Below are positions 3,561 through 49,229 of a stretch of 63,765 nt of DNA, piece by piece. Numbering within the stretch: the stretch's first letter is position 1; every line of letters starts with the position of its first letter. The DNA comes from Welwitschia mirabilis (taxonomy: Eukaryota): NCBI GenBank assembly GCA_051453625.1, contig JBOZIK010000001.1:48652691-48716455 (forward strand), read 5' to 3'. Both the position numbers and the translations under genes were made by a program. The notes under the pieces were generated by a model, which saw only the letters and a list, made by a program, of their open reading frames with translations, was not told the DNA's origin and searched no databases.

Positions 3561-3627
3561 ATAATGCATAGGTTTCATTAGATCTGAGGTATAGTAATGA
3601 TAATACTACACTTTCAGAAATGATATC

Positions 3628-14100: not shown

Positions 14101-14900
14101 TCTATAATTTGTTATATTATACAAGAGGTTATTGAAGCTTTAGTCATGTTTCCTTCTAATCCTTCCATTAGGGTTGGGCTAGATTACAAGCTAGCATAAA
14201 GCTTTATGGATTATCAAGATATTTTTCATAGATTACATACTTTTACTTTTCTAATAATAAAGTGTTACATATTCTTTCCTTGGTGCATTACTTTCATATG
14301 AAGTTATGATAGAACTCATACTTGTTATGCTGAGAATTGGCTAAGGAATGTTACTACTTTAAAATCTTTTAGTGATTCTTCTTTTTGCTCTAGCTTACAT
14401 AATCTGAATCTTTATTTGATGGATCTTGGGATGTTCCTACTTTTCATACTTATAATATTCTTATTATGAAGGCTAGATGACTTGAAGACATCACCCCCAT
14501 GTTTATGGTGGATGAGATTACACCACTATGTTTGAGCTACAACCATATGAGATTCATGTCTATGTTGCATAAGATTATGCAACTGTGTTCAAACTAGAGT
14601 AGAAACTACATAGATTTACTTATAGAACTTATGCTTTTCTTGAATTCATTATGATAGTATTGATAGTATGTCCCATTCCTAGATCTCTTATATACTTTTA
14701 ATCTCTTATTATCATTGTGTTTGCTTTATTGATAGCTCATGACATTTATCTCTATGGAAGAACGACACAAGGACCATGCTACTAATGTAAGTCTTAGTGT
14801 TATTAGTAAAAGTTAGGATTAGCCATGCAAGATTTGTATCCTAATGAAATCTTGCTATTTGCCATACATTGACGACTGATACAAGCATATCCATAATTTA
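11116..14900 (+). mobile_element. 3' part of a second Athila-type element (decayed extra-ORF region, PPT, LTR starting at 13596)
   Basis: GCTAAGGGACTAGTAAAAGCTTGATTGGGGGATA-TGATAAC at 13562-13602 is an Athila-like PPT/LTR junction. The LTR start resembles the reverse complement of 22085-22110. Stop-riddled coding-like sequence at about 11500-12600. Both outer boundaries are approximate. Confidence 0.6.
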
Positions 14901-14904
14901 CTAT

Positions 14905-17900
14905 AAATAATAGCCCTTTGCTTTCTTGCTATCTTAAAATTTAAATTCATATTCTTGATTGCCCAATATGCCTTATATTCAAGTTTAACAGGTAGATGAT
15001 AATCCTTTCCATAAACTAACCTAAATGTGGACATTTCTAATGATGTATTATAAGCTATTTGGTAAGCCCACAAAACATCATTTATCTTGTAAGACCAATC
15101 CTTTCTAGATGAGCTCACCTCTTTCTATAGTATTTCGCTTCCCCCATCCCTCCTTGTATTAATGACCTCGACTTGTTTGCTAGTTTAGGGATAATAAGGA
15201 GCTACGACTTTTTAGGTAACCCCATACTTAGTGAGAAGACTATCGAATATCCTATTACAAAAATGAATAACACCATAGCTAATAAGACCCGAGGACAACC
15301 AAATCTTGGTAGAATATTTTCTTTAAAGAACTTGACTATAAATTGGGCATCCTTAGATCTACAAGCGCATGCTTCTACTCATTTAGTAATATAATTAATA
15401 CAAATAAAAATATATTAATATCAATTTGAAGAAGGATATGAGCCTTAAAAGTCAATACCTAAAATATCAAAAGGTTTAATAACAAGAGTGGAGTCCAAAG
15501 GCATCATATGCTTTTATGCAAAGCTACTAAGTTTTTGGCAATTTTTGCATGTTTTACAATAAATATATGATTCATTACATATGGATGACTAATAAAAACT
15601 AGATTAAAGGATTTTGGTGGTTATTTTTTTTAGTAAAGTAGTAGCTGCAGTAAGATTTAAAGTGGTAAAGTTTAAGAATGTCATGAATTTCTAATTGGAA
15701 AACACATTTTGGTCTAGGCAATGTTTGGATAGGTGAGGACTATTCCAAAAGAAATATTTAACTTGACTTAGAAATTTCTTTTTATCATTGAGGATAAGAA
15801 GAGGTAATAACCTTTGAAACCAAGTAATATTGATGTTAGTGAATCAAGTTATTTGCATCATGGAGAAAAATTGCTTGCTGGAAAAAGAGTTGTTGATGAA
15901 AAAGAAATTATGTGAGTTATTTTGAGTTATGCGTGAAAGATGATTAATTACAACATTGTTAAAATCCTTTTTATCCTTAATTTCAAAATCAAATTCCTAT
16001 AAAAGTAAGATGTATCTAATCAATCCATGCTTGTAGTTCTTTTTAGTAAAGAGATATCTAATGGCTGAGTGATTTATGTAGATGATAATCATAAAACCAA
16101 GGAGATACTACTTAAATTTTTCTAAGTCAAAGACTATGATGAGAAGCTCTTTTTTAATGACATCATAGTTTAGTTGATTATTGATTAATTTTTACTTGTA
16201 AAATAGATTATAGTTGGTTTTGTATCTACTTTTTGTCTTAATGCATCATTAACTACATAATCACTAGCATCGCACATGATCTTAAAGGATAACTTCCAAT
16301 CAAATAGTTAAATGATAGTTTTGGTGGTAAGTTTTCCCTTGAGATTATGAAAAGCTTACCAACAATCATGAGTTTAGTTAAAAGAGGCATCTTTTCTCAG
16401 GAGGTTAGAAAAATTTTGAAAATTTTGCTAAAATCTTTAATAAACATCCTATAATAACCTGCATCTCCTAAAAATGATCTCATATCTTTTTGGTTGTGTA
16501 ACATAGGCAAGGGGGTACTTAATAAAACTTTTGCAGAGCTAACTTAAATTCCTTCTGAAGAAATAATGTATTCTAAAACTACACCTTTGTTGATCATAAA
16601 GTGACATTTTTCCAAATTTAACACCAAGTATTTTCCTATTGACTAAATAAGAAACATTATAAGTTGTAAAGGTAGCAGTCAAAAGAAGACTCATAAATAA
16701 AGAAATTATCCATTAAAATTTTAATGTATAAAAATAACAAGTTAGAAAAAATTCCAAGAATACATCATGGAAATGTGGCAAGGGCATTACATAGACCAAA
16801 TATCATTCATCTATAGGTGAAGATTCCATATGAGTAGGTAAATGTGGTTTTATCCTGAACCTTGGAAGAAATTTTTATCTGATTATACCCTAAATATCCA
16901 TCTAGAAATAACAAAATGATGTAGGGCGAGTTGCTCTAAGATCTGGTCAAAAAATGGGAGAGGGAAATGGTCTCTCCTTGAAATAGTGTTAATTTTTTAG
17001 TAATCTATGCATATTCTCCATTTAAACGTAGGCCTAATAGGGGTAAGTTTATTATGATCATTTGGCACTAGGTAATTCCAATTCTTTTTGCTACTACTAG
17101 GGTTGGATTTATCCATTTATTATCCAATATTAGAAAGATGATTCCATTATCTAAAAGCTTAATCACTTCATTTTTCACTACCTATTTCAAGGTGGAGTTC
17201 ATTCTATGTTGGCCTTTTTTAAATTGTTTTCCATTTTTCTCTAAGTAGACATGGTGTACTCAAATACTAGGTTAATGCCTTTAATGTTAAAATGGATTCA
17301 TCTGATGGCTTATTTATGTTTTCTCAAAAGGTTTAACAATTTAATTTCTTGAGAAGAGGACAAGAAGAAATTAACTAGTACTAGAAACATAGAGTCATCT
17401 CCTAAGAAGGCATACTTATGGTTATGGAAAAGAGGTTTATGCTTAATGGAGGTTTCATCTTACGTGATGGTGTAAGAGTCCTGTTCTTGAAGAAGATCTA
17501 AAGCATGCTCATCATGAAGATATGTGAAAGGTTCTTGATAAACAAGAAGGCTCTCTATTTTATCCACATGTTCTATTCCATCATCACTAAAAGGCAGTTT
17601 CATGGCATTAAAAAATGTTTACCTCTACTATCATATTGCAAATGATATTTTTATTAGATCATTGTTATAGTTAATTAAGAAGTTAGAGGTTGTTAAGAAG
17701 GTATTCCTAAGATGATGGGACTAAGTGATTGATCTTGTTCTCAATATCTAAAAGCACAAAATCCATTGAAAAATAATAGTTGTCTATCCTACTAATGATA
17801 ACTTCAATTACTCCTAATGGGTTTTTCAAGGAATTATCAACAAGTTACAGTTGGAGTTTGATATTTTTAAATACTTTCAAGCCTAATTCTTTACAAGTAC

Positions 17901-20900
17901 CATAAGGAAGCACATTTACACTAGCTCCTAAGTTTCATAAGGCTTGGTAAAGGTGTTTTCTCCAATGGTAATGACCATTGTAAAGTAGCCAAGGTTCTTT
18001 AATTTAGGCAAAAATTGGTTTTAAAGTAGTGCACTTGTTTGTTGTGCTAAAAAGGCTTTACTTTTAACATTCATTTGTCTTCTTAGTATGCATATATTCG
18101 TAAGTAACTTTGCATAAGAAGGAACTTGCTTAATTGCTTTTAAGAGGGGAATGTTCACTTTAACTTCTTTGAAGATCTCTAATGCCTCTAACTATTTTTT
18201 AATAATGTTTTTCTTCTTAAGTAGTTAATTGAAAGGTAAAGGTTCTCGATAATTTGATAAAGGATTTTCTAACTACTCTATATTTTGTTCTTCTCTTTGG
18301 TTTTTGTGGGTGTTAATTCCTCTTTAATTTGGTTTTTCTCAAGTTGTTTGTTTAACTCTTTTCCACTTCTAAGATGAATACCCTTGGTTTCTTCTATTTG
18401 GGTAGCTATAATATTTCAATAATTTTAACTGCTCTTGGGTTTGGCTATGAGTTGATAGGGAGTTTTCCAAGCTTTCTTTACTTTAAAGAAGCAAGAATTT
18501 GGTTTTGGATTTGCTAATTTCGTTCTAATTTATTGAAGGAGAAAATAAGTTATTAATTAAACTACTTTTGGAATTTCATAAAACTCTTTATTATTTCCTC
18601 AAATGAATTAGATGATGAAGGTAGGTAATTGGATGACAAATGGTGATTTGAATGGCATTGGTTTAATAGGAAAGAATTGAAGGACAAAGATGCAAATGAG
18701 TTTCTTAGTTAACTATTATGATTTTGGTTAGAAGAGTGGTACTGTTTTCAAGAAAAATTAGGATGATTCCTCTACCTAGGGTTACAGCTATTTGAATATG
18801 AATCATTTTTCTTACTTTGCCAATGATGTCATGTGGCATTACCTTGTTCATTTACTATGTTTTGAAAGAGGGGTATAGAAGGACACTTAGCTTTCTCATG
18901 TGAGTCTATGTAGCAGATTAAGTAATTGGGTTTGGAGGTTAAAGATTTTAGTGAGGTGCAAAGGAATTCTACTCTTCTCAATAATTCATCAATTCAGGTA
19001 TTGACCTCAAAATTTTTTGGCACACTAAAAAAGCTAGTGGACCTAACAAAATACTAGGATCTAGATGGTTCAATTAGTTTCTTCCAATTTTTAAAACTTT
19101 TGGCTACTAATTTAAGGTAGTCCCAAACTTTATCTAAGGGGAAATTTAAGAAACTACTCCTACCCATCCTTTGAACTAAGTGCCTATTTTTTGATGATAA
19201 TCCATCATAAAAGATACTAATTACTCTACCTAACTTAAATCCATGTTGGGAATATTTTTAAAGCAAGTTCTTATACCTCTCTAAGAATTACGAGAATGTT
19301 TTGTGATCTTTCTGTTGGTAGTTCATAATCTCTCATCTTAAAGCATTGATTTCATGACTTGAAAGAAAAAACCTTTGAGAACAAAGCTTTATTAAGGTCA
19401 ATCTAAGTTCTAATTAATAGAGGTTTAAGGGTATAGAGCTAGGGCTTAGCTTTTCCTTTAAGAAGTAATGGAAAAATGGTAAGTTAGAGGGCATTTGGGA
19501 TATTAGAGAACTATTGTAAGATGGCTAGCACATACTCAAATTCCTTTAAATGGAGATAGGGATCTTCTAATTCTAAGTTGTGAAAATGGGGTAATAACTA
19601 AATAGTAGAAGGTCTAAAATCTAGTCTACACACTATTGGTGATTAGACTATACATGATAAGGTACCTAAGCATTAGGGTTGTAAATAATCATAAAGGGTT
19701 TGCCTAAGGGGGTTCTTTGAAAAGTTGGAATTGGTTATATGATATGCTAGGGTTTTGGGCTACTATTTAGCCAAGGTAATAGGCATGCAGATTTTCTAGT
19801 AATTCTTCATTTAATTAAGGTATGTTATTATTATAAAAAATACAATAAAAATCAAATGGAATGTTTGAGTTAGACTATTATTAAGAAGATTATTCGTTAT
19901 GGATTTCTTTATGAGGATGGTTTCTTGATGGGGATATCTATTTATCATTACTACCAGTGTTAGGATCCATGTTTTTGTTGGAAGTACTCTAATTAAATAA
20001 CCTATTTTGTCTCAGATACAATACATACGAGTCTCAAAAAAGGTTTAGAAGGGGCCTAAAAAACAGATAGCTTTTTGATGTTTGACAGAGGTTATAGTTT
20101 AAGTTACAGAGGCTTTTCCATAGAAATGTCAGTGGTGTTAGTTAGGGAAGGTGATGGAACTGATTATTTAGTGAGTTATATTTTCAAGAAAAAGATAGAG
20201 TTTCACAAGATCTACACAAAATGTTTCAAGTTACAGGATACCAAAAAATTATAGTAGAATTAAAATGACAGTAATCTCAAAATGAATTCTTAGGAAAATA
20301 TACCCTTTTTTTTTAGAAATTTTAATAGAAAATACAAAAGTGTGACCGAAAAAGAAACTATCAAAATAAAATATTGCAAAAATAAAAAGAAACACAAACA
20401 AAGGTAAGCTCTATATTAGTCTTTCACCTTTTTCTTTCCTTATTTTGGTTGCGATCCTATAGAAAGCTCATCAAACCTACAATGTAAAATGTTTGATACG
20501 GAAATACTACTTAGGTTAGAATAAAAAATTTAAAAAACTCATAAAAGGACTAGTTTTGATATCACTGAAAATGGAACAGTACCCATTACTAGAGAGAAAA
20601 GAAAATGTAACAAAAATAAAAACAAACTAAATCAATTATTACTAAAGAAAATCAATATGAATCCACTGGAAATTTTGGAAAAAAAATTACAAATTAAATT
20701 AATAAAAAAATTGAAAGAAAGAAAAATTATGCTTCTCTTGAGAAGCTACTATTCCATTCTTCCTAGTAGAAACACTAAAATCTATTCATTAGTCAATACA
20801 GTCAAACTGAAATAAACTATACAAGTACCCAGTATCATTCTTTCACAAGGATAATTAAGGTTAAACTTAATAGAAGTAACATAAAATTGTCAAATTTGCA

Positions 20901-22110
20901 ATGAAATCAAAACAAGGGGAATATAAGAATTGAGATTTGTAATGAACTTGATTTATGAAGTAGAAGGTCTAGCTTGACTTTTCGAATAACACACCTTTAT
21001 TCTAGTGATATCCTATAATTTCTGAAACAAAGCTAAAATTATCAAGTCGTGATGTCTTGGTGAATGGTAATATCATCCCATTTACCACATGAGTGTTGAT
21101 GAATTTAATAGTTACTTTGTTTCTTCATAACCCTTTCATAAGCATAAAAGTAAGGACTACTGTACTCAAAATCCATCAAATAAAAGTAGCTACAACTAAT
21201 AAGCTAACTTAAGAAATTCACTCAGTTATCAAAAAAACTTGATAAAGTAGTTTTAAGTACAAGGTAACTAGCAACTTGAAATTAAAAATAAACAACTACT
21301 TTTATCAAATTAGGAAAATATATTGCATTTAATGAAGAAGATGAGGTTGATACATACTCCTTAAACTAGCCTTACAACAAGTTTGCTTCCAAAGAAGGTG
21401 CTTAGAAGGCCATCTCACTTATTACACTCTAAGGATTCCAACTACATTTGCCAACCAAAAATTCTTTATAATCAAGGTAAAAAGCCCTATTATAGGCGAG
21501 TATGTAGTAAATGCAGTTGGAAGCCTTTGGCTTGTAGTGGTAGCTAGATAGTTACAAAATTTGTCATATAGCTTTAGATAGCATCTTTGTGCTCTCGTGT
21601 TAAGTGACTATTGTCAAGATAAATCCAACATGTGGCCTTTAGATCCTGATGCTTCTATTAACTAATGTTATTTCCATGTGTCTCCAATATCATCTTACGT
21701 AACACTGCCACATGTTGCTACTATGTATCTTCTATGTCATTGTCATGTGCCATTAAAGATGCCAATTATTTTTGATATGATAACTGATTAAGCCTATCAC
21801 AATATTTTGCTCGATTTTTCATGCTAGTTCTAGAACATAACCTTTGAACTATTTTGATCTAAAAGACTAACAACATTAGTGACCTAGGTGGAAGCTTTGA
21901 CATTTTCTATTGAATGATCTTTAACTTTTAGCATATCCTTCAGAATGTAGTAAATAACCTAAATATCTTATAAAAAAGTGACTAGTCTACAGATCATGTT
22001 TAAAATGTTAAAAGACATAGTTTTATGATAAAACGGTTATTTTAATGTCTTTTTCTAAACTAAATTAGTCAAATAAACTTGGTCTAAATGTCAATTTTTG
22101 CATGTTAACA
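14905..22110 (-). mobile_element. Degenerate Athila-type Ty3/gypsy element: 5' LTR, PBS and gag-PR-RT-RH-INT pseudogene, 3'-truncated
   Basis: Minus strand: integrase SRKDWSYKINDVLWAYQIAYNTSLEMSTFRLVYGKDYHLPVKLEYKAYWAIK (14920-15118); RT WRICIDY*KINTISRRDHFPLPFFDQILEQLA and FLDGYLGYNQI (about 16870-17030); protease LGASVNVLPYG (about 17900-17935). Decayed PBS at about 20760-20778; LTR about 20782-22110 starting TGTTAAC. Many stops and frameshifts. Confidence 0.88.
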
Positions 22111-23928
22111 CTTATGACTCTTATTATTGTTATATTAGAATGTTATTATTGTTGTTGCTACTATAGTATTATGCTACTAGAATAAAAATATTATTTTTGT
22201 TTTATGACATTTTCTCGTTTTTTTATCCCTCTTAACTTTCGTCGGCAACTTCACTTAATATGTCAATCATCAATCATACTAACATAACATAATAATTTCA
22301 AGTTTATTAAGTTTATAGAATAATAAATTAGATAATGGCTAAATTTATTATATTAATTGTGATTTTAATGGGAAAAAAGTTGATATCAATTTAATAAGAT
22401 TATTTAATAAAACAAAATTCTTTTCTACTTTAAGCCTTTAAAAATAAATCAATAATGGTCTTAATGTGGTTCATGTTTATATATGAAATCCTTATGTTGT
22501 GGAGTTCAAGATAACTACACATGTGTAAATCTAATTATTACTATTTTTAATACTAAGTATGACATGATCTATTTCCAATTAGTGAAATGTTGACAAAAAA
22601 TAAAAATATTGAAAATGTAAAAGAAAATGTTTATCAATCAAGTAAAAGCCTCTATTGCGAGAAGTGTGACTCAAAAATATCATAAATAGCATAGAACATT
22701 CCATTTCGAAACCAAATAAATAAGCCACATTTAAACTGATAACTATCCTCTATATATAGATCTAGTGGGGCTGTGTTAATGCATACTAAATGTTATTTGA
22801 AAAACACCACATAACATAATAATGATCTTTCATAGTTATATTAACTCTAAAGGTTTTCATGATCATATGTTGTATTAAGTTTAAATTGCATACTTATTTC
22901 TAAAAAGTAAAATCAAAGGAATATCTTGTAATGATATTGTTAGCTTTAATAAAAGAAATTTGAGACTTTTGAGAATAGAAACTAAATGAATCTTTTGTAT
23001 TAAAGATAAGGAATTGTAACGTCCCCATTTTTACTTCTTTTTAAAAGTTAAAAAGATTAAGTTTAATAAAATATTTAGAAAGATTTAATTATTTTGAAAT
23101 CTCCAAATAATCTAAATATTATGTTTTTTAGGTATTGTTATATTAAATTGTACCTTAAGTTCCTTTTATCTTGATTAAAAATATTATTTATAATCTTCAA
23201 AAATGTTCTTGCAATGGTGATGACTTCATTTACTTTTATTTTGTTGCAATTTCCTAGAATTTATGCATTTAAATGTAAATTGTAGAGGCTTGTTATTTAT
23301 TTTGCTACATTATTATGATTAAATGTGAGGCATTATTTTATATTATTATTAAAGTACCTATCGGCCAAGCAAGCCTTTATGAGACGTTATTGAAACCTCC
23401 TTTACCATTGACTCACGTTGTATCCTTTTATATTCTTGAATCTTGTTATCTTACTCATGTTCTATCACTTTAAATAGAGTCCTCCCTCCCTCAAGTCTAT
23501 TTTATTTTTCTGAAATGATCCTGCCTTGAAATATTAGAGCTTAGGAGGTCTAAGAGCATTGGAAACTTGGAAGATCTTCAAAGAGATCAAACATACATGG
23601 ATATGGTTCTATACTTTCTTACTTCCTTTATGCATTATGTTATTGAGTTATCATGTTTATATTCCTGCAAGATGAATGTTTAATTGTGTAATGCTTGATA
23701 AAGATAAATTTAGTTTGTTACATGTCTTGTCTTCCTTCACCTTTTATGCTTGATGTTTTGATGGTATCTGTTCTTAGTATGAGTTAATAGCTTGCAGTCA
23801 AACCTTATCGTATTTATTCTTGTCATTATGTTGTTTGAAATCTATGATTATAAGTTGATAGCTTATGGTCAAACCTTATCTTATTTTTCTTATCATCGTT
23901 ATGTCTTAGACTTATGGTTATGGATTTC

Positions 23929-24133
23929 CACAGATCACCGAATGAGGTAATGAAGTTGATGATATATGAGATTATATATATTTATATATGAGAAACACAA
24001 ATCATCGAATGAGGTAGTGGGCTTTACAGAGCACCGAATGAGGCAGTGAAGTGAAATATGATAAATTATATAAGAACTATAGATCATCAAATGAGGCAGT
24101 GGGCTTCATAGATCACCAAACAAGGCAGTGAAG
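23929..24133 (+). repeat. Array of five ~27-nt motifs in LTR-A
   Basis: Consensus CAYAGATCACCGAATGAGGCAGTG at about 23929, 23996, 24026, 24078 and 24107, with variable AT-rich spacers. Confidence 0.85.
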
Positions 24134-24443
24134 TGATCAAGTTATGATAAAATATATAATGATTATTCTCGTTCATAATCATAAGGTCAGTGTTTGTAAA
24201 ATATCTTGTTTCTTAGAGTTTTTACTTGACTTGCCTATTTTTACTCTTGAAAATACTTGCCTATCTTGCCTAGTCTTGCCTAGACCATACTAGGAGCTGT
24301 GAGATTTTCACAGTTTTCATCTCATACTTTTGCATGACAAGTGGAAAATCGGAGTATAATTATTGTTGTAGGCAAAAGGATGTGAAGGATTAATGTTCCA
24401 GTATTATTGGAAAATTATGCTAAGTAATCTTGTATTCCTTCAT

Positions 24444-25124
24444 CTAGAACTCTACCTTAGACTCTTCTTCAGTAGAAATTCAGCCTCCCCCTCAAGAAGA
24501 AATTGATATGAATGTTGCTCAATGGGAAGTTATGCTGGCAATAATTTAAGGTCTAAAGAGATGCCCCTTTATCACATTAGGAATCTTTCACAAAGCCCTC
24601 CCTCAAGCCATCAAGTCTAGCTACAAAAAGAAAGCCCTTGAACCACATCCAAATAAAAATCTAGTAGGTGCTGAAGAATTCAAGAAGGTAAATCAAGCGT
24701 TTGAGGTACTCTATGATGATATAGATTATTTCTTACTCAATCAAAATCATGGTAATCTGTTCCCGTTTTATAGAAGACTCATAATTCTCCTCCTCCTAGG
24801 TCTTTTCCTTTTCAAACTTAAGTTTTTTTGTAACTTCTAGTAGCATGGGGCATTTTTGCCCCCAGTCTGTTAGTAGTTCTATGCTTTTACTCTTCTATAC
24901 TATTACTTTTCTATATAGGTAGTTCCTCGTGTTCAGCCTATTTCCTTGGGGGTGGTTTCATCTCCATTTTTGTTCTGGTTCACAGTCCTCTCCTAAATGG
25001 TCAGTGGAATACCTTTCCTTTGTTTCTAAACAGTTTAATTTTCCTATCAATCCTGGGCGTTATCGCCCCTTGATGTACATTTTTTAGTCTAGTATATATA
25101 CTTTTTTCCAAAAAAAAAAAAAAA
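24444..25124 (+). mobile_element. Poly(A)-tailed non-LTR retroposed insertion (5'-truncated LINE-type element or retrocopy) inside LTR-A
   Basis: Exact 15-bp TSD CTTGTATTCCTTCAT at 24429-24443 and 25125-25139; A15 tail at 25110-25124. The uninterrupted empty site is visible in LTR-C at about 33481-33510. Confidence 0.93.
24550..24840 (+). pseudogene. DnaJ/Hsp40 J-domain coding remnant within the retroposed insertion
   Basis: Reads GLKRCPFITLGIFHKALPQAIKSSYKKKALEPHPNKNLVGAEEFKKVNQAFEVLYDD..., matching the J-domain pattern (PY.VLG....A...IKKAY+K.AL..HPDKN...EEFK.+N.A+EVL.D). HPD is altered to HPN at 24646-24654. In-frame TAA at 24547-24549 upstream; stop TAG at 24838-24840. Confidence 0.85.
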
Positions 25125-28100
25125 CTTGTATTCCTTCATTAAAATACTTGGCATTATATTATTGAGATCTTGAGATCACGATATACTTTTCTGGAATTCT
25201 ATTTTCTTGGAAGTGTTGAGAATTAAACTCCATTATATCATGTGTGTGATTGTAGTTTATGAAGGTTACTCAGATGTTGCATTTTGTATTGAACAATAAA
25301 TATTTTCCCTCAAATTTCTTGCAATAAAATATGATGATTTTAGCATATATTCTTCTTACTTTTATTAAGAAATTTTATTGGAAAATTTGAGTTTTTAAAC
25401 ATGTAACTCCTCGAAAAATGTATTTTTTAATTTTCAATAATGTATGAAATTGGCAATTTATTTTTAGGCATTACTTGTGGCCATTACTTAAAGATTATAA
25501 GTCTATTTATGAGTATAGAATATTGGTATTATGCCATCAATTTAATATTAATATCCATTTATTAAAAATGAAATCTCATGAAAAGGTCATGTGTTTTCCT
25601 CCTTCTCCCAAAAATGTTTAAATAATGTCATAAATAGGCTTGATGATAGGTGTTAATAATTGTTAAAATATCATTAAAATTTTATATGGGAAGAGTGATA
25701 ATAATTACTTAGGTATTCTCACAATTACGTATGTGTAGGACACCATTAATTATTAATTACTATAAAATTTATATTTATGAAGGGTAATTAAAACTAAGGG
25801 TCCTCATGTGCTGAATTTTTACTAAGATTGTGGGTTATATTGTATTTAATGTATATGGTAAAGGGGAAATAATGAGGATTTAGTCCTTTGATAAATAAAT
25901 AACATTCGTAAATTTAAAATTAGAAATATAGGCATTACATTTTGGTATCATAGTATCTAGTTTGAAGATTTTCAACTATATAAATTTTAGGATCTTTCAT
26001 TTTGGTATCAGAGCCCTAGGTTGCGATTTCACTAAGTGTAGTTATTGTGAAGGTAATATACATTTCAACATTAAAGTCTAGGATTGTGATTAAGCTTTTA
26101 ACATGGATGCCTAAAGTTGACTCTGTGCTTGTTGAATTTGTGGATGTTACACTCCTAGATGAAGAAATCATGAATAGAATGTGTGTATATAATAAATAAA
26201 TATCAAAAAAGTTATATATATTATAATATTAAATATTATTATTAAAAAATTATTATAATATATATTTATTTTTAAAAAAAGGAAAAGGCAAATGCATTAA
26301 TACATTCCTAAAATCATGTGTTTTGGAAATATATTTAGTAAATATAGCCACAATAACTTAAAAACAAGATTAGAAATAAAGCATTAAAACTCAAATTGAA
26401 TAAAACGTTAAAAATAGTTAAGGGTCTTGAAATTTTTTAAAGCATTCATATAGAAATAATTATAATGGAGGAGGAGTAAAAGCGAATAGTAGAAAATGCA
26501 TTCTATGTGATTGAACTCATGAGAAATTATTAATGTCATGTTAAGGTGAAGAAACTCAACCACTTAATACGAATAATTTAGATTCACTTTCCAATCTGCT
26601 TCTGCTTTCATCACTGCCCATTTTGAGGGGATCTACACCACTTTATAATTTCTGTGATTTTTATACTGCTCTTGAGACTCGGTTTCTTTTCTGATTTGCA
26701 CATTTTTCTATAAAATTTAAGTGCATCAAGTCCAAAAATTCTAATTGTAATTCGGTGCCTTAGACAAAGGAGGAAATTAACTTCATTCAGAGAGCACGTA
26801 GTAAGGCTAGTGAGCTAGATCTTTTGTTTGCAATGGGGCTTTTTAATGAATCCACCAAATACAATCTAAAAACATCTCTTTATCGACTATGATAGAATAA
26901 AAAGGCAAGAATAAGTTTTGGTTGAAAAGTGCAAAAACTTGTGATTTTAGAAATCACAGAGGATCTTTCTATGTATCCGACTGAAAGCCATTACGATATC
27001 TTAAATGATGTAGAGAGGAATATTCTTTCTCTTAACATTCAGACCCAAGTAATTTTATAGATTATTTTTCAAAGAAGAGGGTGAATGATCCTCCTGTAAA
27101 CTTTCTGTGACTCATCATGCTCTTCAATAGTTGTTTTAAATAAATAAGATTCTAGTCCTTATCATTTATCCCTCTTCCTGATGAAACTACACTAGCAGTT
27201 ATTCTTAACAATGGTAAGAAATATTGTGAGACAGTAGTAGGAGCAAGTAATTGTCTTTACGTCTGGCATGACGTTGTTATTTCATGTATTATTGACACCT
27301 TGATTTCTCTTAAAAACATTAGCATAGAATATGAAGTATCTAAGCATTAAGCAGTCTACACAGAACTTGACCTACACTACAATGTATTTGGCATCGGGCG
27401 AATAAGGTTTTGAAGTCTGAATGCTATGTTCAAAACCTTCTATAGTGACACTTCGGTGGATATCTAAACTAGTTTCAAGTAACATCATTGTATCCTTCCA
27501 ACAATATCACGTGATCTTAACTCTCCGCATTCTTACTGCAATCATGCTTCTAATTTTATTAGTAGTTTCTTTCTTTCTATTGTCTGGTATTCAACAATGA
27601 AAGGACATCTTCTTCATGCCATTATTCTTTCTTAAGATTTACATTTCTTAACCGGAATCTTGTTAGACCAATGTATATTCATATGGATGCCAAGAAGAAT
27701 GTCTATATAAAGAAACATTAGTCACTAGTGCACAAGAGAGGCAGTGCTTGAGAAAGTGTAGAGCAACGTGGCCAAACATGGAAATAATACACGCACAGTT
27801 AGGTGGTCTCAACTTGTGGGCAGGTGTTAGTGAAAGAAAAATAATAAACTGGCTCTAAATAAAGTTAAAATGACTAGTGAAAGTCAATTTGAACGTTTTT
27901 ATTAATCATTTGTGTTACTTCCATAAGATCTATGTCCTATAAACTCTTACTGGCAAGAGAGTTGGCTTTTAGAAACCTCCATTATGTTGTAGTAAATCCA
28001 AGACAGAAACTATTTAGAAAATGATGTTTTGGGTTTAATTAGAGGATGTCTTAGTGCTGTGATGGCTTTCCTGTTAATTCTACTTTGCTGTTGTTATGTT

Positions 28101-31100
28101 TCCCAGTGTCTTGGATGGCAGAGATGGAGTAGAGAGGGACTGTTGTGGATGTGGAATCATTAAGGTGTTGATTCTGTCTTAGCTCTTGACAAGTTTAAAG
28201 GGTTGATTATTATTGAGTGCAGAGGCATGTGGAAGGGTATTATCGAAATACCTAGGATAAAGAAGAAGGGTCCACTTAGCTGCTTTGAAAATATGTATAA
28301 TGGACTAAAAAGTGTAGCGCTGACCAAGCAAAACATCATGAAATACTTACCTTGAGGTGTTAGATATTAGACAATTAAAAATATAAATCACTATTATCAT
28401 AAACTAATGTGTTCATTGTTGCCTCCCTCCATTCTCACCGTAGTGCTCCTCCTCTCTATGTGCATCATCTATTCTTACTTAGAGCTATGTCTTGCTGCCA
28501 TTTTTTATTTAAATCATCATCCTCTCACTAGTGTTTCTAAACCCATTGTATTTTGTCCTTTTACCCTGATTTCTCTATATTTTGTAAGGGATCTACTTCA
28601 GGTCCATCAAAATTCCAATGCCATCGTAGTAAGCATGGAGAGGATGTCACTAAATTGGTGTTTTAGCAATAACAGGTCCAAGCTTATGTCTAACTATATT
28701 TTTTAGAATACTATCTAGAGCTTGACTGCCATATTTTATGCATGAAAAAGGTTATAACAACATCGAAGAATATACTTAGTTGTATAAGTCTAGTTGGTAT
28801 TACTACTTTTAACTATGGTTTATTCCTCTTACTTTTAGAATAGGTTTTAAGTTTCATGTGACATTTTAGAACTTTTAAGCAAGACTAGTTATATCTTCAA
28901 TGATGTTAAACTTTTAAGTATGATAATAATATTTCCTTATTCTTATGTTGTTTAATTCATTTCTTACTTCAAAACTTTTCTTTTATTTTTTCTAAGCATA
29001 GATATATGACTTATAGTATCTCATTTTCTGCTATGTTTCAATCTCTTAACTGCACTTGTAAGATTGATAAGATTTTCTAAATTCATAGAAATTGTGATTT
29101 TACCTTTATATGTATATTTTGCTTTCATCGCTTTATATTTGAGAATGCATCAAACGACTAATATAACCTTCTATTTTTAGGTCCTGACATAACCTGAAAT
29201 TTGAAAGTCTTGTTATTGAGAAGATAGAATCTTTTAATGCCTTAAAATGAAAAGTAACATATAAACATCTCATGATACCTTATACAAATCTTTAAGACCT
29301 CCTCTCTATATGCTGATGTTTGGGTTGATCACTAGAAAAAGTATGAGTCCATTTGGTTAAACCTCTTAACTCCTTAACCTATCTTGGTAATCTATATCCA
29401 AATAACCCTTTTTCTTAAAAGTTTCTCGTATTGCTTGACTAGTTATTTATATTAATTGAGTCTCCCTTGCTAGTTTTTATTAGCTTACGTCTTGTAATCC
29501 TCAGCTACATGATAAGTTTTAATTAGCTGATCCTATTATGTTAAAGTTTGTAATCCTATTTAGATGGAATATGCATATAGGTTTTCAACCTTATGGATTA
29601 GACTTTTCTCACTTTGAAAAGCTCTTTGTTTGGTCTATGATTACATAACTTTGGCCTCCTATCATACATTTAATCCTTCACTTATTAAGCCTTAAGATGC
29701 TATATTATACATGTAAGCCTTTGAAGTGGAAATTCAACTATATTATACATAAAGAAGTGTAAAAAAGGCATCGAAAGAAGTACACAAAAAAGGAGTGTAG
29801 TATGGAAGGGATCTACAATTTTTGAGCTTAGGCTTGAGGAATTTCTACATAACAACTGTTGAAGTATATGTCACAATTAGAGTAAGAGATTGTTGTGTTG
29901 TCATAATTGAGTTGCAGTTTTGGACTTAACAGTTTGAGCATATTTTGGTTTTAATTCAAGCAAGAAGGTCGTTGAGATATTTTGGCATATGAAACTAAAT
30001 GGTTCAACTTAATTGTAAGCATATTCAATTTTTTCTTAGAAATTCCTTGCTTGAGAGATATGCTAAATTATAACATTTTTCCCTAATCAAGTAATCTTTA
30101 TCACCCCAGAAAATGGAAAAGATAGAAGGACATGATTAACAAAAGAGTTTGTGTTAATTTTTGAAGTTAATATGCCATGAAATTTAATATTACAATAAAG
30201 GTAATTTGGCATCTCTCTTAACATAAGAATAAGTTGTATAAATCTTGAGATTGATGATATCAATCACCTTGAATAACTTATGTGAACTTGTTTGTTAAAA
30301 AACAACAGTGTGAAGCTAAACGCTAGCCTATATCAACCACTTTCAACATGAAGGCACCTAAGAAGAAACTATTAACATGCACGTTGTAGTAAGTTTGTCA
30401 AAGTGAAGAAGGTAGAATATGGCTTCTATTTTATTGTGTGAAGTGCTTAGTAGATGGCATAGTTCATGTTGTGTATAAAGTCATTAATTACAGTTTAGAT
30501 TGCAAAATCAATCCTTAGGAAGATTATGAATATCTATATGTCTATAAAGGTAACTTTTACTACATATTATGGAGAATATTTTTTCAAGATTAATTCAATG
30601 CAACCAATCTATAGAAGTAGCAACTTAAGAGATAAAAGCAGATATTAATCAATGGATACCTGATTTTTTGATAAGTTTTGAGATAAAACTTCTTAAGGAG
30701 GTGAGAAATGTCACCTCCATATTTTTATTTATTTTAAAAAATTACAAAGATTAATTTTAATGAAATATTTATAAAATATTAAATTATTTTGAAACCTCCA
30801 ATTGATATAAATATTATGTTCTTGAGATGCTATCTTATTAAATTATAGTATGAGTACCTTTTAATTAAATGTTTGCATACAATTTTTAAATGTTCTTGTG
30901 GTGGAAATGATTTCTTTTATTTACTTATGCACTTCTTAAAAATTATACTTGATTAAATGTATATTGTGGAGGCATGTTATTTATCTTTTTCCTTCATTGT
31001 TAAATATGAAGCATTATCTTTATTTATATTATTAAAAGCACCTAATGGCTAGGAAATATTTTATGAAAAATTATGTAATCCCCCCTTAACTATTTCTTTA

Positions 31101-31614
31101 GACTGTGTCCTTTCATATTCTCAAGTTTTATCATCTTACACATGTTTCCTGATCATATATAGAGTCCTTTTTTTCTCAAGTCTAGTTTATTTTTGAAAAC
31201 AACCTTACCATGAAATCTTGGAACTTAGAAAGCTTAGAAGATCTAAAAACTTGAAAGGTCTTTAAATAGTAAACATATGAATATGGTTCTATACTCTTGT
31301 ATTTTCTTGATGGTTCTTTCTTATGCATTCGTTTATTCAGATCGATGTGTATGTATTAATGTAAATTGATTGTTAAATCATGCATTTCTTAAATAAGAAA
31401 ACTTCTATGTTGATGCATGTTTCATCTTCATTTATCCTTTTTCTTGATATCTTGAGGTTACCTTTCTTAGTATGAGATGAAAATTTGTGATTAATTCCTA
31501 CTATATTGACTTTATCATCTTGATGTTGAAATTGATGATTAAGATGATATGTTATAATCAAACCTATCTCAGTTTCTTGATATCATTTTGTTTAAACTTA
31601 TGGTTATAAATTTC

Positions 31615-31921
31615 CATAGATTATTGAATGAGGCAATGAACTTCATAGAGCACCGAATGAGGTAATGAAGAGAGAATTCCACAGATTGCCGAATGAGGCA
31701 GTGATGATATTATATTACCATAGATCACTGAATGAGACAGTAGGCTTCACAGATCACCAAACAAGATAGTGAAGTTAATGAAAACTAAGATTATATAATT
31801 ATATTATTATGAAAGCCATAGATTACCAAATGAGGCAGTGTGCTTCATAGATATTATATGAGAATCATAGATCATCAAATGAGGAAGTGAGCTTCACAAA
31901 TCACTAAACAAAGCAGTGAAG
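31615..31921 (+). repeat. Array of about eight ~27-nt motifs in LTR-B
   Basis: Same motif as 23929-24133, at about 31615, 31644, 31680, 31719, 31748, 31817, 31866 and 31895. Confidence 0.85.
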
Positions 31922-34900
31922 CAATTGAGATATTTATTATATTTAATATTGTCATTCAAAATCATAATTTCAGTGTCTATATTATAGCTTTATTTTTTTG
32001 AAGTTTTGATTTGTTCTTCTTGCTTATCTTTTAAAAAGTATTGCCAAAGTACCTTTTTTTGCTTGGATTATACTAGGTGCTATGAGATTTTTATAGTTAT
32101 CATCCCATACTTTTATGTGATAGATGAAAAGTCTAAAGCTTAATTGCTGAAGTGGGAATAAGAATGAAGATGTTTATTAATCCTATATTAATGAAAAGTA
32201 TTCTAGACAATTTGTGATCATTATTATCTCAGTTACTTGGAGTTATGTACTTATTTCCTATTAATTATCATGAGAGATAAATTTCTTTATTTCTATGTGT
32301 GTGATTTGTAGTATGTAAAGTTTATTCTAATTGATTATGTTATGTGATTAATGAATATTTCTCTTAAAAATTTTGATCCATGAATTTTGATTATTTGAGA
32401 TCATATTTTCAACTATTACTTGATGCAGTTTATGAAAATCCTGGATCCTTAAAGCGTATATTTATTTTCATTGTTTGAAATGTCAATTTGAAATTCTGAA
32501 TTTTTGGAATCTTTTTGGTAATTATGAGTTGGCATATCAATTTCATGTTACAGTTGGAATATGAAAAATTATTTTGAAAATCCCTTATAATATGGAGTTT
32601 TTAGAAGAATATTTCTTGGATGTTATGTTTATTTATTGTTAATAAATCCTTTTTAATGGACATTTGATATTCCCTCCTTCGCTAAAGATTTAAACCTGTT
32701 GTAAAGAAAGCTAATTAAATCCTCTCTAAATAAATTTAATGTTTTAAAATTAGGAGTCCTATTTAATTAATTNNNNNNNNNNNNNNNNNNNNNNNNNNNN
32801 NNNNNNNNNNNNNNNNNNNNNNNNNNNNNNNNNNNNNNNNNNNNNNNNNNNNNNNNNNNNNNNNNNNNNNNNCTTGTAGTGGTGATGATTTCATTTACTT
32901 TTATTTTATTGCACTTTCCTAGAATTTATGCATTTAAATGTAAATTGTGGACGCTCATTGTTTATTTTCCCATATTATTATGATTAAATGTGAATCATTA
33001 TTTTTATATTATTATTAAAGCACCCAGTGGCCAAGTAAGCCTTTATAAGATGTTATTAAAATCCTAGAGCTTAGGAGGTCTAGGAGCATGGGAAACTTAA
33101 AAGATCTTTGAAGAGATTGAACATATATGGGTATGGTTCTATACTTTCATGCTTCCTTGTTGGTCCTTTCTTATGCATTCTACTATTGAGATTGTTGTGT
33201 TTATATTTCTACAAGATGAATGTTTAATTATGTGATGTTTGATAAAGATAAATTCAGTTTGTTACATGTCTTGTATCCATCCACTAAGAACAAATACCAT
33301 CAAACATCGAGCACAAAAAGGATGTGACAAGTCTTGCATGGATCATACTGGGAGCTATGAGATTTTTATAATTCTCATCCCATACTTTTGTGTGACAAGT
33401 GAAAGATTCGGAGTATACTTGTTGTTGTGGGCAAAAGGATGTGAAGGATTAATGTTCTAATATTGTTGGAAAATTTTGTTGAGTAATCTTGTATTCCTTC
33501 ATTAAAATACTTGGTGTTATATGAATGAGATCTTGAGATCACGATATACTTTTCTGGAATATTGTTTTCTTGGAAGTGTTGAGAATTAAACTCCATTATA
33601 TGATATGTGTAATTGCAGTTTATGAACTTTACTCAGATGTTGCATTTTGTATTGAATAATAAATATTTTCCCTGAAATTTCTTGCAAGAAAATATGATGA
33701 ATTTAGCATATATTCTTCATGCTTTTCTTGAGAAATTTTATTGAAAACTTTAAATTTTTAGATATGTAACTCCTCAAAAAACGTGTCTTTCATTGAATTA
33801 ATTTTCAATAATGTATGAAATTGGCAATTTATTTCTAGGCACTACTTGCAGTCATTTCTTGAAGATTATAAGTCTATTTATGAGTTAGAATATTGGTATT
33901 TTGCCCTCAATGTGATATTAATATCCATTTATTAAAAATAAAATCTCAAAAAAGGGTTATGTCTTTTCCTTCTCCCCCCAAAAATGTTTAAATACTGTCA
34001 TACATAGGCTTGATGATAGGTGTTAATAATTATTAAAATATTATTAAAATTTTATATGTAAAGAGTGGTAATAATTACTTAAATATTATCACAATTGCAT
34101 ATGTGTAGGACATCATTAATTTAATTACTACAAAATTTATATTTATGAAGGGCAATTAAAATTATGGGTCCTCATGTGCTGAATTTTTATTAAAATTATG
34201 GGCTATGTCATATTCAATGTATATGGTAAAGGGGAAATAATGAGGATCTAATCCTTTGCTAAATAACTAATGTTCAAAAGTTTAAAAATTAGAAATATAG
34301 GTACTACATTTTGGTATTAGAGTGATGAGTTTGAATATTTTTAACTATAAAACTTTTGAGTTATTACATTTGGTATCAAAGCATTAAGTTTGAAGATTTT
34401 CAACTGTATAAACTTGGGGTTTTACAGGAATATAAAATTTCTTTAATGAAACAAAATGAAATCATTGTTATCTCATCATCATGTTTCTTAATTAGTTGAG
34501 AAAGCAAAAATAATATATTTATTTATTTATTCCATATCCTCTTAAAATTGAGCATTTCCTCATTAAATGAATTATGTTCCTTCTTTATAGTTTTTATTTA
34601 TAAGGTAATAAGAAGTTTTTCCATTTATATGCCATTATTGCTACTTTATAAAGAAATGGTTATTAACATAAAAAAAGCAAGGATGTTAAACATCTAATAA
34701 AGTACATTTTATTACAACATGGACTTTGTATAATACATTAATCTACTTGAATCAGTAAATATTGAAGCAAAAAAAGAGAACAAAGATCTATAAGAAAGAA
34801 ATAAAAGGTTCTACATTATATCATATAATGATACAACTGAGGCTCCTACTCTTCAGACCAAAATGTGGAAATAAAACTACTATTTAAAAAAAAGATGTAA

Positions 34901-36684
34901 TATCATATTTATTTTTCTATTTTTTTCTTTTCTTCATACTTTTTTCACGTAAGTGCTCTTTACGAAAATACTTTTAATTCAATTATGATAAGAAAATGAA
35001 ATTGGATTTTACTTTTTAATCGGAGACTATGTTGAGTATTGGTATTTCAATATGAGAATTGATTTATCAAAATCTACTAAATTTGTCCTTATTTTTATAG
35101 GGTTCTTAAAACCTTATACTATACTTAGAGATATTTTGTTAAATTTACAAGTACACAGTGGAATTATGCTGAGAGTAGTTAAATTGTGACTATTTTAACA
35201 CTTTTTAAAGCATTATTTATGAGTATACTTAAAGCCAATTATGACAATTTGGAGCGAGGATGCAATAGGAGTATTATGAAGGGATGAATACCTCTTGAGA
35301 TCTTTATATGAGCTATTCTGTGCTTACATAAGATCTTGTTAATAAACTTGATTATGTAATGTAAATCCTTCCAACGATTCATTATTGCTTTTAAGAGTGA
35401 TCCTTAAGATTGATGAAATTACCAAAAGATATTCTTTATAATTAAAATGAATTATAATGATATCTTATGATATTAATCTGATTCCTGCATGTACAATAAC
35501 TTCTATTAATGATCTAGAAATTTTAAGACATTTTCTTAATGATTTCTAATCTTCTGATAGTGTTAAATTTGTTAATTTTCATGTTTGAAGTATAAAAAAT
35601 GAAAACAAAAATAATATTCTTTTCAAATAGCCTATGTTAAATGCAAGTCATAAAACTTCAAATTTTAGGTGGTGGCATAATACTATTCAGCTAATTTAGT
35701 TGGTTGAAATTTTTCAAAGATGATTCAAAAAGGGGATTTTTGACCTCTAATTAGTTATAACTCACTCATAAAATTTTTTTGCATGTTATAGATAAACCCT
35801 TTATCCACCATTAATAAATCATAATCAAGCCATTTAGATTTTCTTATAGTCAATATTCTACTAATTTATTTAGTTTGGAAGTGATTGTATACATGTTTAA
35901 GCCATTTCCTCTTTCTTAGTTTATCTATTATCGTACATCATCCTAGTTCAATTCCGTATTCTTTCCACCTAAGAGGGGGCTTTAAGAAGTTCAAGACAAG
36001 TCCTTTTAGTAATTTTATAACATATCGGGGCCAAGAATTGACTTTTAAGCATTTGAATGATTTAAGATCAATATAGGGGTGTTCTTGTCCATTGAATAAG
36101 TTTTTGTCTACCTTATCTTGCAATTTTGTGTGTTTTCATATTTTAGCTTGGATGTTTAGTAGTTTTTAGAGTTGGTATGCTTTTTTATTAAGTTTTTAGC
36201 ATTGAAAAAGAGTATATGTTAATGTTTTATAGTTTTACATAAAATTACAAAATGTATTAGATTACTTGAAATATTAGTTACATATTTTTAATAAAGATCT
36301 CCAACAATGTTAAATCTTATCTTGTCCATTTCTCTGGAATTTTTATTATTTTTCATTAAAAAGTATAATATTACATTTTAACATCATACTAAATTAATTT
36401 CACATATCCTCTACTCATTTCTTCTAATTTACTTTAACATATTTTTATATTTTCATGCCTTTTGTCTTTATTTATATTTTTTTAAAAATATTTTATATAT
36501 CCTTATTTACTCTTATTCATGAAAAGTAACTATCTTTAATCATGTATTTTGCTTATAACTTTAGAAATCCTTAGTGAAACCCTTTGTAATATACCTTTTC
36601 TACAACTTTGTATCAAAATGCCTTTTTCTATTTCTTCTAAAAAAATCTATAAGTTTAGCATTCTTTTTTTTTTTTTTGGGTTTA

Positions 36685-37598
36685 TAGTTTTCATTTAAAT
36701 CTAAATTTAAATTGAGTCCATTTTTTTATCTACAATTGAAGAATTGATTTTGTATTAACCTTTTTTTTTTAAATTTAGAATACTTAACTAGTTTTTATTT
36801 GCCTTTGTATTAGTTTCTTAATATTATTATTTAAAATAACATATTAAATGTTGATTTAACATGTTTCACTTAACATTTTTTTTTCCTTTGTTTGATTAAG
36901 CATTGCATTTCTCATGCTAAAATTATTGTATGTTGTTTGGTAGACTAAGCTATGATAATTTGAATTGATTTTCTCTTTCCAAGTTTATCTCATTTCTTCT
37001 AATTATGTGCAAAATGCATGTTTCTAAAGTTAGTACTTTCCAAAAAAAATGTTGTACTAAGTCCTATGTTTTTTAAACCTAGACATGCATCAAGACATTA
37101 TTAAAATGATTCTTTTATAATTTTAAACTCTAATGCTTTTTATTTAATAGTTTTCCTTAAAATCTAAATTTAAATTAAGTCACGATTTTTATCTGCAAGT
37201 GAAGACTTGATTTTGTATTAACCTTTTTTTAACAAATAGAACACTTAACTAATTTTTGTTTACTTTTGTATCAGTTTCTTAATATTATTACTTGAAATGA
37301 TCTTTTAGATGTTGATTTAACATGTTTCACTTGACATCTTTTTTCTTTGTTTGATTAAGCATTGTATTTGTAACTTTGAAATTATTCTAATGTTGTTTGG
37401 TAGACTAAACTATGATAATTCGAATCTATTTTTTCTTTCTAGGTTTATCTTATTTTTTCTAATTATGTGCAAAATGCATGCTTCTAAAGTTAGTACTTCC
37501 AAAAAATATTGTTGTATTGAGTCTTATGCTTTAAAAGCCTATACATGCATTAAGACATTATTAAGATGATTCTTTTATAATCTTCAACTCAAATGCTT
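36685..37598. repeat. Diverged direct tandem duplication, period about 463 bp
   Basis: 36685-37138 and 37148-37598 align. Both contain AAATCTAAATTTAAATT, TTGATTTAACATGTTTCACTT and TTCTAATTATGTGCAAAATGCATG. Confidence 0.9.
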
Positions 37599-40922: not shown

Positions 40923-46314
<5,392 letters not shown>

Positions 46315-47819: not shown

Positions 47820-49229
47820 TATAATAATGTAAGCTTTAACATTTTGTGTAGGAATTGGATGTAAAACACAAGGACATTTAATGGCTAGTTCCTTAGTTGA
47901 TAGGGCTATTTATAGGTTTTCCATTGGCTAAGGTGAGTATGGTATGATTTTCTATGAATTAAAAAAACAAAGGGAAAATATGNNNNNNNNNNNNNNNNNN
48001 NNNNNNNNNNNNNNNNNNNNNNNNNNNNNNNNNNNNNNNNNNNNNNNNNNNNNNNNNNNNNNNNNNNNNNNNNNNNNNNNNNNNNNNNNNNNNNNNNNNN
48101 NNNNNNNNNNNNNNNNNNNNNNNNNNNNNNNNNNNNNNNNNNNNNNNNNNNNNNNNNNNNNNNNNNNNNNNNNNNNNNNNNNNNNNNNNNNNNNNNNNNN
48201 NNNNNNNNNNNNNNNNNNNNNNNNNNNNNNNNNNNNNNNNNNNNNNNNNNNNNNNNNNNNNNNNNNNNNNNNNNNNNNNNNNNNNNNNNNNNNNNNNNNN
48301 NNNNNNNNNNNNNNNNNNNNNNNNNNNNNNNNNNNNNNNNNNNNNNNNNNNNNNNNNNNNNNNNNNNNNNNNNNNNNNNNNNNNNNNNNNNNNNNNNNNN
48401 NNNNNNNNNNNNNNNNNNNNNNNNNNNNNNNNNNNNNNNNNNNNNNNNNNNNNNNNNNNNNNNNNNNNNNNNNNNNNNNNNNNNNNNNNNNNNNNNNNNN
48501 NNNNNNNNNNNNNNNNNNNNNNNNNNNNNNNNNNNNNNNNNNNNNATGGTATGATTTTCTATGAATTAAAAAAAGAAAGGGAAAATATGCTGGTATCATA
48601 GTGGGTTCAAAAAACTCGTCTATAAGTTTTTTTTAAAATTTTTAGAACTAGTGTATTAATAGAACTAGATAAAGGGTAACACATTTAATAAATTTTAAAG
48701 GCACTGAGGATTCCATAATAGTTCCTTTGGTTTGGAGGAGGATATCCTTCATTACAAAATGGTCCTTTAAAAGCAACTTTTGAGATGATGTAAATGTTTA
48801 GTAAGTAATGGAATATTTAAACTTCCGTTTTTCCTCCTTTTTTGTGAGAGAAGGGTAACTTATATTAATAGGATAATATTTAGAGTGTACAAGTTCATAA
48901 AGTCAAGGATGTCCCAACCACTAGTTGATTTACATTACAATATTCTAAGCTTTTAAAATATGGCATGTTTGTTAGATAATACTAAAAGATTGGTTTTTAA
49001 TTTATATTTATTTTAAATAATAGTAAAATATTTGTGAAAGGTCAAACACCAGAAAAAAAGCAAAAGCTCCATAAGTAGAGTTCTTTTTTTTTTTCTTTTT
49101 TGGTTGTTAAGACTTTGTTATTCACAAATAACTGTAGTTGTTAAAGCTTAGTCATATAGGACTAGTTTCATTAATTAGCTTGAGTTTACTTGTTTTAAAA
49201 GTGAACATAAACAAGTTGATGCACACATA

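Follow-up and report, generated by a model that had tools for sequence, protein, structure and literature searches.

What is a J-domain, a protein module that recruits Hsp70 chaperones, doing inside a long terminal repeat (LTR) of a plant genome? The question is raised by a 63,765-nucleotide stretch of Welwitschia mirabilis DNA (the whole of which is referred to here as the window), in which an LTR is interrupted at 24444..25124 by a 681-bp insert that ends in poly(A) and encodes a J-domain on the plus strand. J-domains recruit Hsp70 through their HPD tripeptide. We find that the insert is a decayed copy belonging to a poly(A) retroposon family that carries a J-domain open reading frame (ORF) and is mobilised by the machinery of long interspersed nuclear elements (LINEs).

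Anatomy of the insertion

The insert is bounded by exact copies of a 15-bp target-site duplication, CTTGTATTCCTTCAT, at 24429..24443 and 25125..25139 (plus strand), and it terminates in 15 consecutive A residues (25110..25124, as read from the window sequence). The base immediately before the duplication is T. The corresponding empty site lies in a second copy of the LTR, where the 15-mer is found only once (33488..33502, plus strand) and runs straight into TAAAATACTT. The spacing between LTR copies 1 and 2 is 9059 before the insert and 8363 after it, and the difference of 696 equals the length of the insert plus one copy of the duplication (681 + 15). An initial annotation of this DNA had described a 681-bp insert with an exact 15-bp duplication, an A15 tail and an empty site, and the coordinates, the spacing and the other copies of the host repeat all agree with that description. 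The annotation had also read these features as marks of target-primed reverse transcription (TPRT). This process is recognized by three features, namely poly(A) at the 3' end, a duplication of 7–20 bp and a precise empty site, and the window insert has all of them.

Part of the stretch is contained in 13 of the 24 listed public sequencing runs, and at least half of the sampled words in 4 of them, under two organism labels and from four studies. Contigs of two DNA runs, X1 and X6 (one per organism label), and raw reads of two RNA runs, X14 and X17, were aligned to 24100–25500 at an identity of at least 80%. Copies of the host repeat without the insert appear in these alignments as loose ends at 24416, in 61 contigs (X1) and 69 contigs (X6), which continue into the sequence that follows the duplication, and as joints from 24443 to 25142 in two contigs (X1) and one contig (X6). 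Because these other copies of the host LTR lack it, the insertion is private to this LTR copy and the J-domain family is independent of the LTR element. A single TPRT-type insertion has thus placed a family member into an LTR copy that already existed. Within the window, neither blastn (word size 7) nor tblastn detects a second copy of the insert.

A J-domain in a decayed reading frame

The J-domain occupies 24574..24720 on the plus strand (peptide residues 9–57, Pfam DnaJ positions 5–56 of 63). The match to DnaJ (PF00226), which the initial annotation had left to be established by a profile search, is significant, with 40.8 bits against a gathering score of 27.8 and an E-value of 2.4e-10. DnaJ is the sole Pfam family above cut-off in the six frames of the insert; a match to PH_fung_RdRP falls below threshold (13.8 bits against 27) and was disregarded. 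An autonomous LINE encodes its own reverse transcriptase and endonuclease, and the 681-bp insert has no match to either in any of its six frames.

The closest solved sequences are the J-domains of Caenorhabditis elegans dnj-12, human DNAJA1 and yeast Sis1 (E = 4e-9 to 1e-6), and 36 solved J-domain sequences are matched at E ≤ 0.01. The alignment to solved J-domains is gapless and places their HPD over an HPN in the window (24646..24654, plus strand). The HPD tripeptide, which lies in the loop between helices II and III, is required of J-domains.

The J-domain is read in the frame of 24445, in which the peptide quoted in the initial annotation is correct and which contains TAG at 24445–24447, TAA at 24547–24549 and the HPN at 24646–24654. 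The TAA stands five codons before the start of the J-domain. The 33 open codons between the two stops (24448..24546, plus strand; NSTLD...MLAII) are either a 5'-truncated coding sequence or a 5' untranslated region (UTR), with candidate ATGs at 24508–24510 and 24529–24531. Downstream of the J-domain, the base at 24781 has no counterpart in most other copies (27 contigs, depth 99.5 of 138.9, in X1; 11 contigs, depth 56.9 of 81.1, in X6). Judging from the window sequence, the family frame would then probably meet the TAA at 24782–24784, about 20 codons past the J-domain, which makes 24781..24784 (plus strand) the probable end of the family ORF. Since the base is absent in most copies and the family stop is therefore placed at about 24782, the hydrophobic tail LIILLLLGLFLF.. 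that follows the J-domain in the window frame, and that the initial annotation had not quoted, is probably a translated T-rich 3' UTR.

The T-rich, 3' UTR-like part (24844..25109, plus strand) has no protein-family match and is itself multi-copy, with pieces over 24782–25097 at about 82% identity. A hydrophobic ORF at 24834–25070 (79 codons, in the frame of 24444) might have been taken for a membrane tail, but this reading was rejected: the third frame is almost equally open, and no protein family is matched.

With HPN in place of HPD, a TAA upstream of the domain and a frameshift relative to most copies, the window copy cannot stimulate Hsp70. Of the two features expected of a working gene for such a protein, the HPD tripeptide and an intact ORF, the window copy has neither and the family has the HPD.

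A diverged multi-copy family

Across the 1401 aligned bases there are 9697 contigs in X1 and 9650 in X6. Among the 40 differences listed (of 363), 15 lie inside the insert, and at each of these 28–124 contigs per run carry a letter differing from the window, on a per-site contig counter with a maximum of 128; in the 3' part the range is 28–71 contigs per listed site. The two in-frame stops, for which the initial annotation had proposed single transitions, fall outside the 40 listed differences. The initial annotation had stated that one or two copies traceable to a single host gene would reduce the insert to an ordinary processed pseudogene, and the distinct diverged contigs, at least 28–124 per listed site in each of the two runs, contradict this. 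The longest pieces (for example 24444–24774, 24509–24884, 24627–24883 and 24782–25097) differ from the window by 16–20%. Jointly they extend from the linker across the J-domain and the 3' part as far as the tail, and the J-domain and the 3' part are bridged, with 24781 crossed by at least 27 contigs in X1. The insert is therefore a member of a diverged multi-copy family whose members have the whole 681-bp unit in common, and not a single-copy pseudogene.

Summed depth along the insert is 328–7921 in X1 and 123–13593 in X6, and single long contigs among those listed have depths of 2–8. The tool itself warns that summed contig depth is not copy number, and we therefore keep to an order of magnitude, placing the family at roughly 10^2 to 10^3 copies of at least 80% identity. 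Depth reaches its maximum (7921 in X1, 13593 in X6) at the linker and J-domain, and the 3' part has several-fold less.

The other copies are old and deletion-rich in appearance. The window and the other copies differ by transitions at 262 of the 331 listed places (X1). Among the 15 joints listed (of 114), 14 are skips of 73–933 bases; nine of these skips lie wholly inside the insert and look like internal deletions in other copies, the rest being insert-less LTR copies or flanking LTR. Alignments of other copies necessarily end at 24444, where the window turns to LTR sequence, and contigs extend 278–447 bases upstream past the equivalent of this position.

Ancestral HPD and expression of relatives

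At the codon that distinguishes HPN from HPD, relatives have CCA GAT AAA where the window has CCA AAT AAA. Loose ends in X1 DNA at 24638 (46 contigs) and 24646 (55 contigs) read ..SSYRKKALRL and RLHPDKNPVG, and RNA loose ends at the same two positions (4 reads each, X14) read ..STYRKKALRL and RLHPDKNPAA. Because relatives in both DNA contigs and RNA reads have GAT at 24652–24654, the ancestral tripeptide is HPD and the AAT of the window is a G-to-A change, as the initial annotation had predicted from the window copy.

RNA cover of the family extends over 24429–24757, with a depth of about 1–10 over 24429–24710, and is zero over 24805–24898. None of the RNA reads is at least 99% alike to the window (0 of 76 in X14 and 0 of 34 in X17). 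As all of them are diverged, it is relatives that are expressed and not the window locus; the run listing names no RNA holder for the stretch. An RNA loose end at 24707 (4 reads, X17; ..VSDKLGRFLL) preserves the end of helix IV as in the window, after which about half of the letters are shared. Over two 30-base stretches (24616–24668), the RNA and DNA consensus differ at nine codons, six of them synonymously. This is a tiny sample, but it suggests that the protein may have been under selection somewhere in the source lineage of the family.

Searches for a parent protein

A HMMER search of 1.84 billion representative proteins returned 90 matches at E ≤ 1e-3, of which one is at E ≤ 1e-10 and none at E ≤ 1e-30, with identities of 28–53%. 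The best matched stretch falls within query residues 36–125, that is, the J-domain and tail, in 84 of the 90. The Ser/Pro/Glu-rich linker has no database match of its own, and six matches (P0007, P0015, P0020, P0025, P0027 and P0064; E = 2.6e-05 to 5.8e-04) extend into the upstream part, reaching residues 9–32 and thus 4–27 residues into it; one of them, P0015, is a repeat protein without HPD. The pattern L[RK]LHPD[KR]N occurs in none of the 90 matches, eight of which were compared by sequence. The top match, P0001, is a protein of 679 residues with six near-identical tandem J-domain units, each with HPD, and owes its rank to this repetition only.

The ESM Atlas returned only generic J-domain clusters. 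Among metagenome contigs, 2 of 371 candidate stretches passed, with 54% and 38% identity; as they match in the J-domain only, they were rejected as family members.

Short interspersed nuclear elements (SINEs) have a 5' head derived from tRNA, 7SL or 5S RNA, a pol III promoter and a length of about 80–500 bp. The insert is not a SINE, since neither an Rfam family (at E ≤ 1) nor a tRNA is found in 24300–25300; it is also 681 bp long and has an ORF.

Origin of the family

Two sources had been proposed in the initial annotation, a retrocopy of a host J-protein gene or the 3' end of a LINE. The data support the multi-copy family, the derivation of HPN from HPD and the marks of TPRT; no host parent was found for the first source, and for the second no RT, EN or ORF1 was found joined to the J-domain.

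We lean tentatively towards a family that is non-autonomous and derives from the mRNA of a J-protein with its J-domain near the C terminus, copied in trans by LINEs. Two observations favour this reading, the mRNA-like layout of the insert (leader, short ORF, T-rich UTR and poly(A)) and the lack of a link to RT. The source would be the polyadenylated mRNA of a J-protein gene in which about 330 nt of 3' UTR come after a J-domain near the C terminus, and a LINE would have copied this mRNA many times in trans. The window copy would then be either truncated at its 5' end or full length, with a 64-nt leader and its ATG at 24508. Through its HPD, the J-domain of an intact relative is predicted to stimulate ATP hydrolysis by Hsp70. 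As a protein-coding retroposon family derived from an mRNA, it would be unusually prolific for a plant, where such families are rare.

Several points weigh against this derivation. Depth peaks at the J-domain and falls off in the 3' part, which a simple 3'-anchored family would not predict. No parent, and no relative beyond generic J-domains, is present among the 1.84 billion representatives, and a word-indexed collection that includes many plant proteomes gave no match at E ≤ 1e-3 at either the 'longer' or the 'near' lengths. Amplification by TPRT is seen for the window copy only. To our knowledge, no high-copy mRNA-derived family has been described in plants.

The next reading in order of probability, which we nevertheless consider unlikely, has the insert as the 3' end, truncated on its 5' side, of a plant LINE that is autonomous and encodes an HPD J-domain, at the C terminus of ORF2 or in a further ORF, and whose ribonucleoprotein would recruit Hsp70. 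The poly(A) tail, the 15-bp duplication and a possible 5' truncation are as expected of such an element, and the frame is open for 33 codons up to the 5' end of the insert. The family is multi-copy, old and deletion-rich in the manner of a transposable element, its copy number is of an order that fits the 10–1000 copies given for plant L1 elements (PMC5203782), and its absence from protein databases would fit a transposon protein that has been masked. The synonymous bias between expressed and genomic versions points the same way, and so do the extra C-terminal domains of ORF2 known from RNase H in plant L1 (PMC5203782) and from a viral helicase in insect R1 (PMC4686597). By contrast, no RT, EN or ORF1 is linked to the insert family, the window holds no other copy, and depth does not rise towards the 3' end. 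The terms 'DnaJ' and 'J domain' have no occurrence in the main text of a survey of L1 domains in 503 genomes (PMC5203782), and our literature search found no element of this type. An autonomous J-domain LINE would show a cellular retroelement co-opting host chaperones by the route that DNA tumour viruses have taken, and would make the dependence of retrotransposition on chaperones directly accessible to genetics.

More doubtful still is a one-off retrocopy of a polyadenylated transcript from some other multi-copy unit, be it a DNA transposon, Helitron or LTR element that had captured part of a J-protein gene, or else a tandem gene family of large size. The many copies would then have arisen by a different mechanism, with TPRT accounting for the window copy alone. 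This origin draws its weight from the peak in depth at the linker and J-domain, the several-fold lower 3' part and the zero RNA cover at 24805–24898, since the peak and the loss of RNA cover downstream mean that the J part may be shared more widely than the tail; capture and amplification of gene fragments by plant transposons is also well known. Yet the J-domain is joined to the 3' part by the pieces 24509–24884 and 24627–24883 and by the contigs that bridge 24781 (at least 27 in X1), the 3' part too is present in many copies, as far as about 25097 and near the tail, and a single mechanism would be the more parsimonious account.

An ordinary processed pseudogene, made from a host J-protein gene that has introns and exists as a single copy, would share the poly(A), the duplication, the absence of introns and the mRNA-like layout, but it is highly improbable, being contradicted by tens to more than 100 diverged contigs per listed site over the whole insert in two runs, by the failure to find a parent protein in the representative library or the word-indexed collection, and by a J-domain about 400 nt from the tail, whereas that of class A/B J-proteins is N-terminal, at a distance of more than 1 kb from the mRNA 3' end.

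The host repeat

LTR copy 1, into which the insert has landed, spans 23015..25999 on the plus strand. It begins with TGTAAC behind the purine-rich tract AAAGATAAGGAA, ends in CA at 25938–25939 or 25998–25999, and is followed at 26003–26014 by TGGTATCAGAGC, which we take to be a primer-binding site (PBS) of the tRNA-Met type. The host repeat thus has the TG..CA ends, the upstream purine tract and the downstream PBS of an LTR. An older copy lies at 30705–32114 (72–74% identity), and copy 2 at 32873–34382 has lost its 5' part in a gap of 100 N at 32773–32872. PBS-like sequence comes after copy 1 as well as after copy 2, and these two copies differ at 116 of 990 aligned sites (84 transitions and 32 transversions; Kimura two-parameter distance 0.13). 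The 'sister LTR' of the initial annotation oversimplifies this arrangement of three repeat copies, two of them with PBS-like sequence downstream. By appearance, the three copies, which are in tandem orientation, form an LTR-internal-LTR-internal array or belong to non-autonomous elements.

The same annotation had assigned the LTR to a chromovirus. This was not confirmed: no gag, RT, integrase or chromo match was found at 26000–32900 (6.9 kb, six frames) or at 14500–23010 (8.5 kb upstream, plus frames), and the LTR family may still be that of a chromovirus. The only domain match in the 6.9 kb between the LTR copies is an FAE1/3-ketoacyl-CoA synthase-like fragment at 28554–28706 (plus strand), within an ORF at 28371–28706 (PF08392, E = 3.8e-11, positions 145–194 of 290). 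It may be a pseudogene fragment, or part of a gene that a non-autonomous LTR element has captured.

In abundance the host LTR family far exceeds the insert family, with a summed depth of up to 58169 at 24288–24334. The LTR end and PBS are doubled about 60 bp apart, at 25940–25952 and 26000–26014, as ..TTACA TTT TGGTATCATAG.. and ..TTTCA TTT TGGTATCAGAGCC, and the same doubling is seen after copy 2. Tandem units of about 81 nt are present inside the LTR at 23983–24145 and 31602–31933 (five copies, 63–100% identity; family D2), and in both runs RNA reads accumulate immediately downstream of these units, at 24100–24146.

Other features of the window

Exons of an MCM6-like replication helicase lie at 43062–45101 (MCM P-loop, E = 3.7e-35), among them an exon at 44523–45044. 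Their best relatives are seed-plant MCM6 proteins, with 63–69% identity over the exon–intron read-through, and the region has the highest G+C content in the window (0.38–0.40). Matches to the exon are scattered across seed plants and point to no single lineage; together with the FAE1/3-ketoacyl-CoA synthase-like fragment, the exon identifies the window as DNA of a seed plant. A tandem duplication of about 460 bp at 36674–37598 (families D4, D10 and D13; 83–87% identity) lies within a stretch of 23–25% G+C. There are five runs of N, 1548 bases in all, at 2478–2577, 32773–32872, 47983–48545, 59687–60460 and 61516–61526.

Comparison with known systems

Elements mobilised by LINEs carry RNA-binding, esterase, RNase H and helicase modules. 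The J-domain, a universal handle for Hsp70 recruitment, was not found as the cargo of a LINE or retroposon in the literature that we searched: no paper describing a LINE or poly(A) retroposon with a J-domain came up, which is an absence in the library searched and not proof.

The Sadhu elements of Arabidopsis (PMC2848041) are non-coding, number 39 copies in A. thaliana and have a 5' motif, CAATCGTTSC, and a polypyrimidine tract. The insert resembles them in its sub-kilobase length, its poly(A), a duplication within their range of 7–16 bp (15 bp here) and the T before the duplication, and also in having no tRNA or 5S head, in belonging to an old diverged family with expressed members and in its presumed mobilisation in trans by LINEs (PMC2848041). 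Unlike Sadhu, the family has a J-domain ORF and apparently at least several-fold more copies, and the Sadhu 5' motif was not seen in the insert when read by eye. The likeness is therefore one of mechanism and not of membership.

Plant L1 elements (PMC5203782) have an ORF1 with RRM, zinc-knuckle or DUF4283 domains, sometimes an RNase H after RT, and 10–1000 copies. The insert shares with them its poly(A) and a duplication within 7–20 bp, and 5' truncation and domain gain downstream of RT are common or known among them (PMC5203782; Smyshlyaev et al. 2013, cited there). It differs in that no apurinic/apyrimidinic endonuclease, RT or ORF1 is linked to the J-domain family, and the main text of PMC5203782 names no J-domain. 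That domains can be gained at the 3' end of a LINE is illustrated by an insect R1 element with a viral helicase at the C terminus of ORF2 (PMC4686597). With processed pseudogenes and other retrocopies produced by LINE machinery (PMC5408686) the insert shares an intronless, mRNA-like copy that is dead or decayed, a poly(A) tail and a duplication. Retrocopies of one gene are normally few, whereas here there are tens to hundreds of diverged copies with no identifiable parent.

At the level of the protein, helices II–III and the motif ..KNP.GAE.FK.. align without gaps to class A/B Hsp40 proteins (dnj-12, DNAJA1 and Sis1). The architecture is different: in class A/B Hsp40 an N-terminal J-domain is followed by G/F and client-binding domains, whereas here about 20 codons follow the J-domain before the stop.

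What is new here is a LINE-mobilised retroposon family with an unusual protein cargo, the J-domain. The nearest functional analogy is to the T antigens of polyomaviruses, which have their own HPD J-domain and engage host Hsp70 with it. The analogy is of function only, as the two belong to different classes of element and show no homology beyond the J-domain fold, and the window copy is without HPD; engagement of Hsp70 by intact members of the retroposon family is a prediction.

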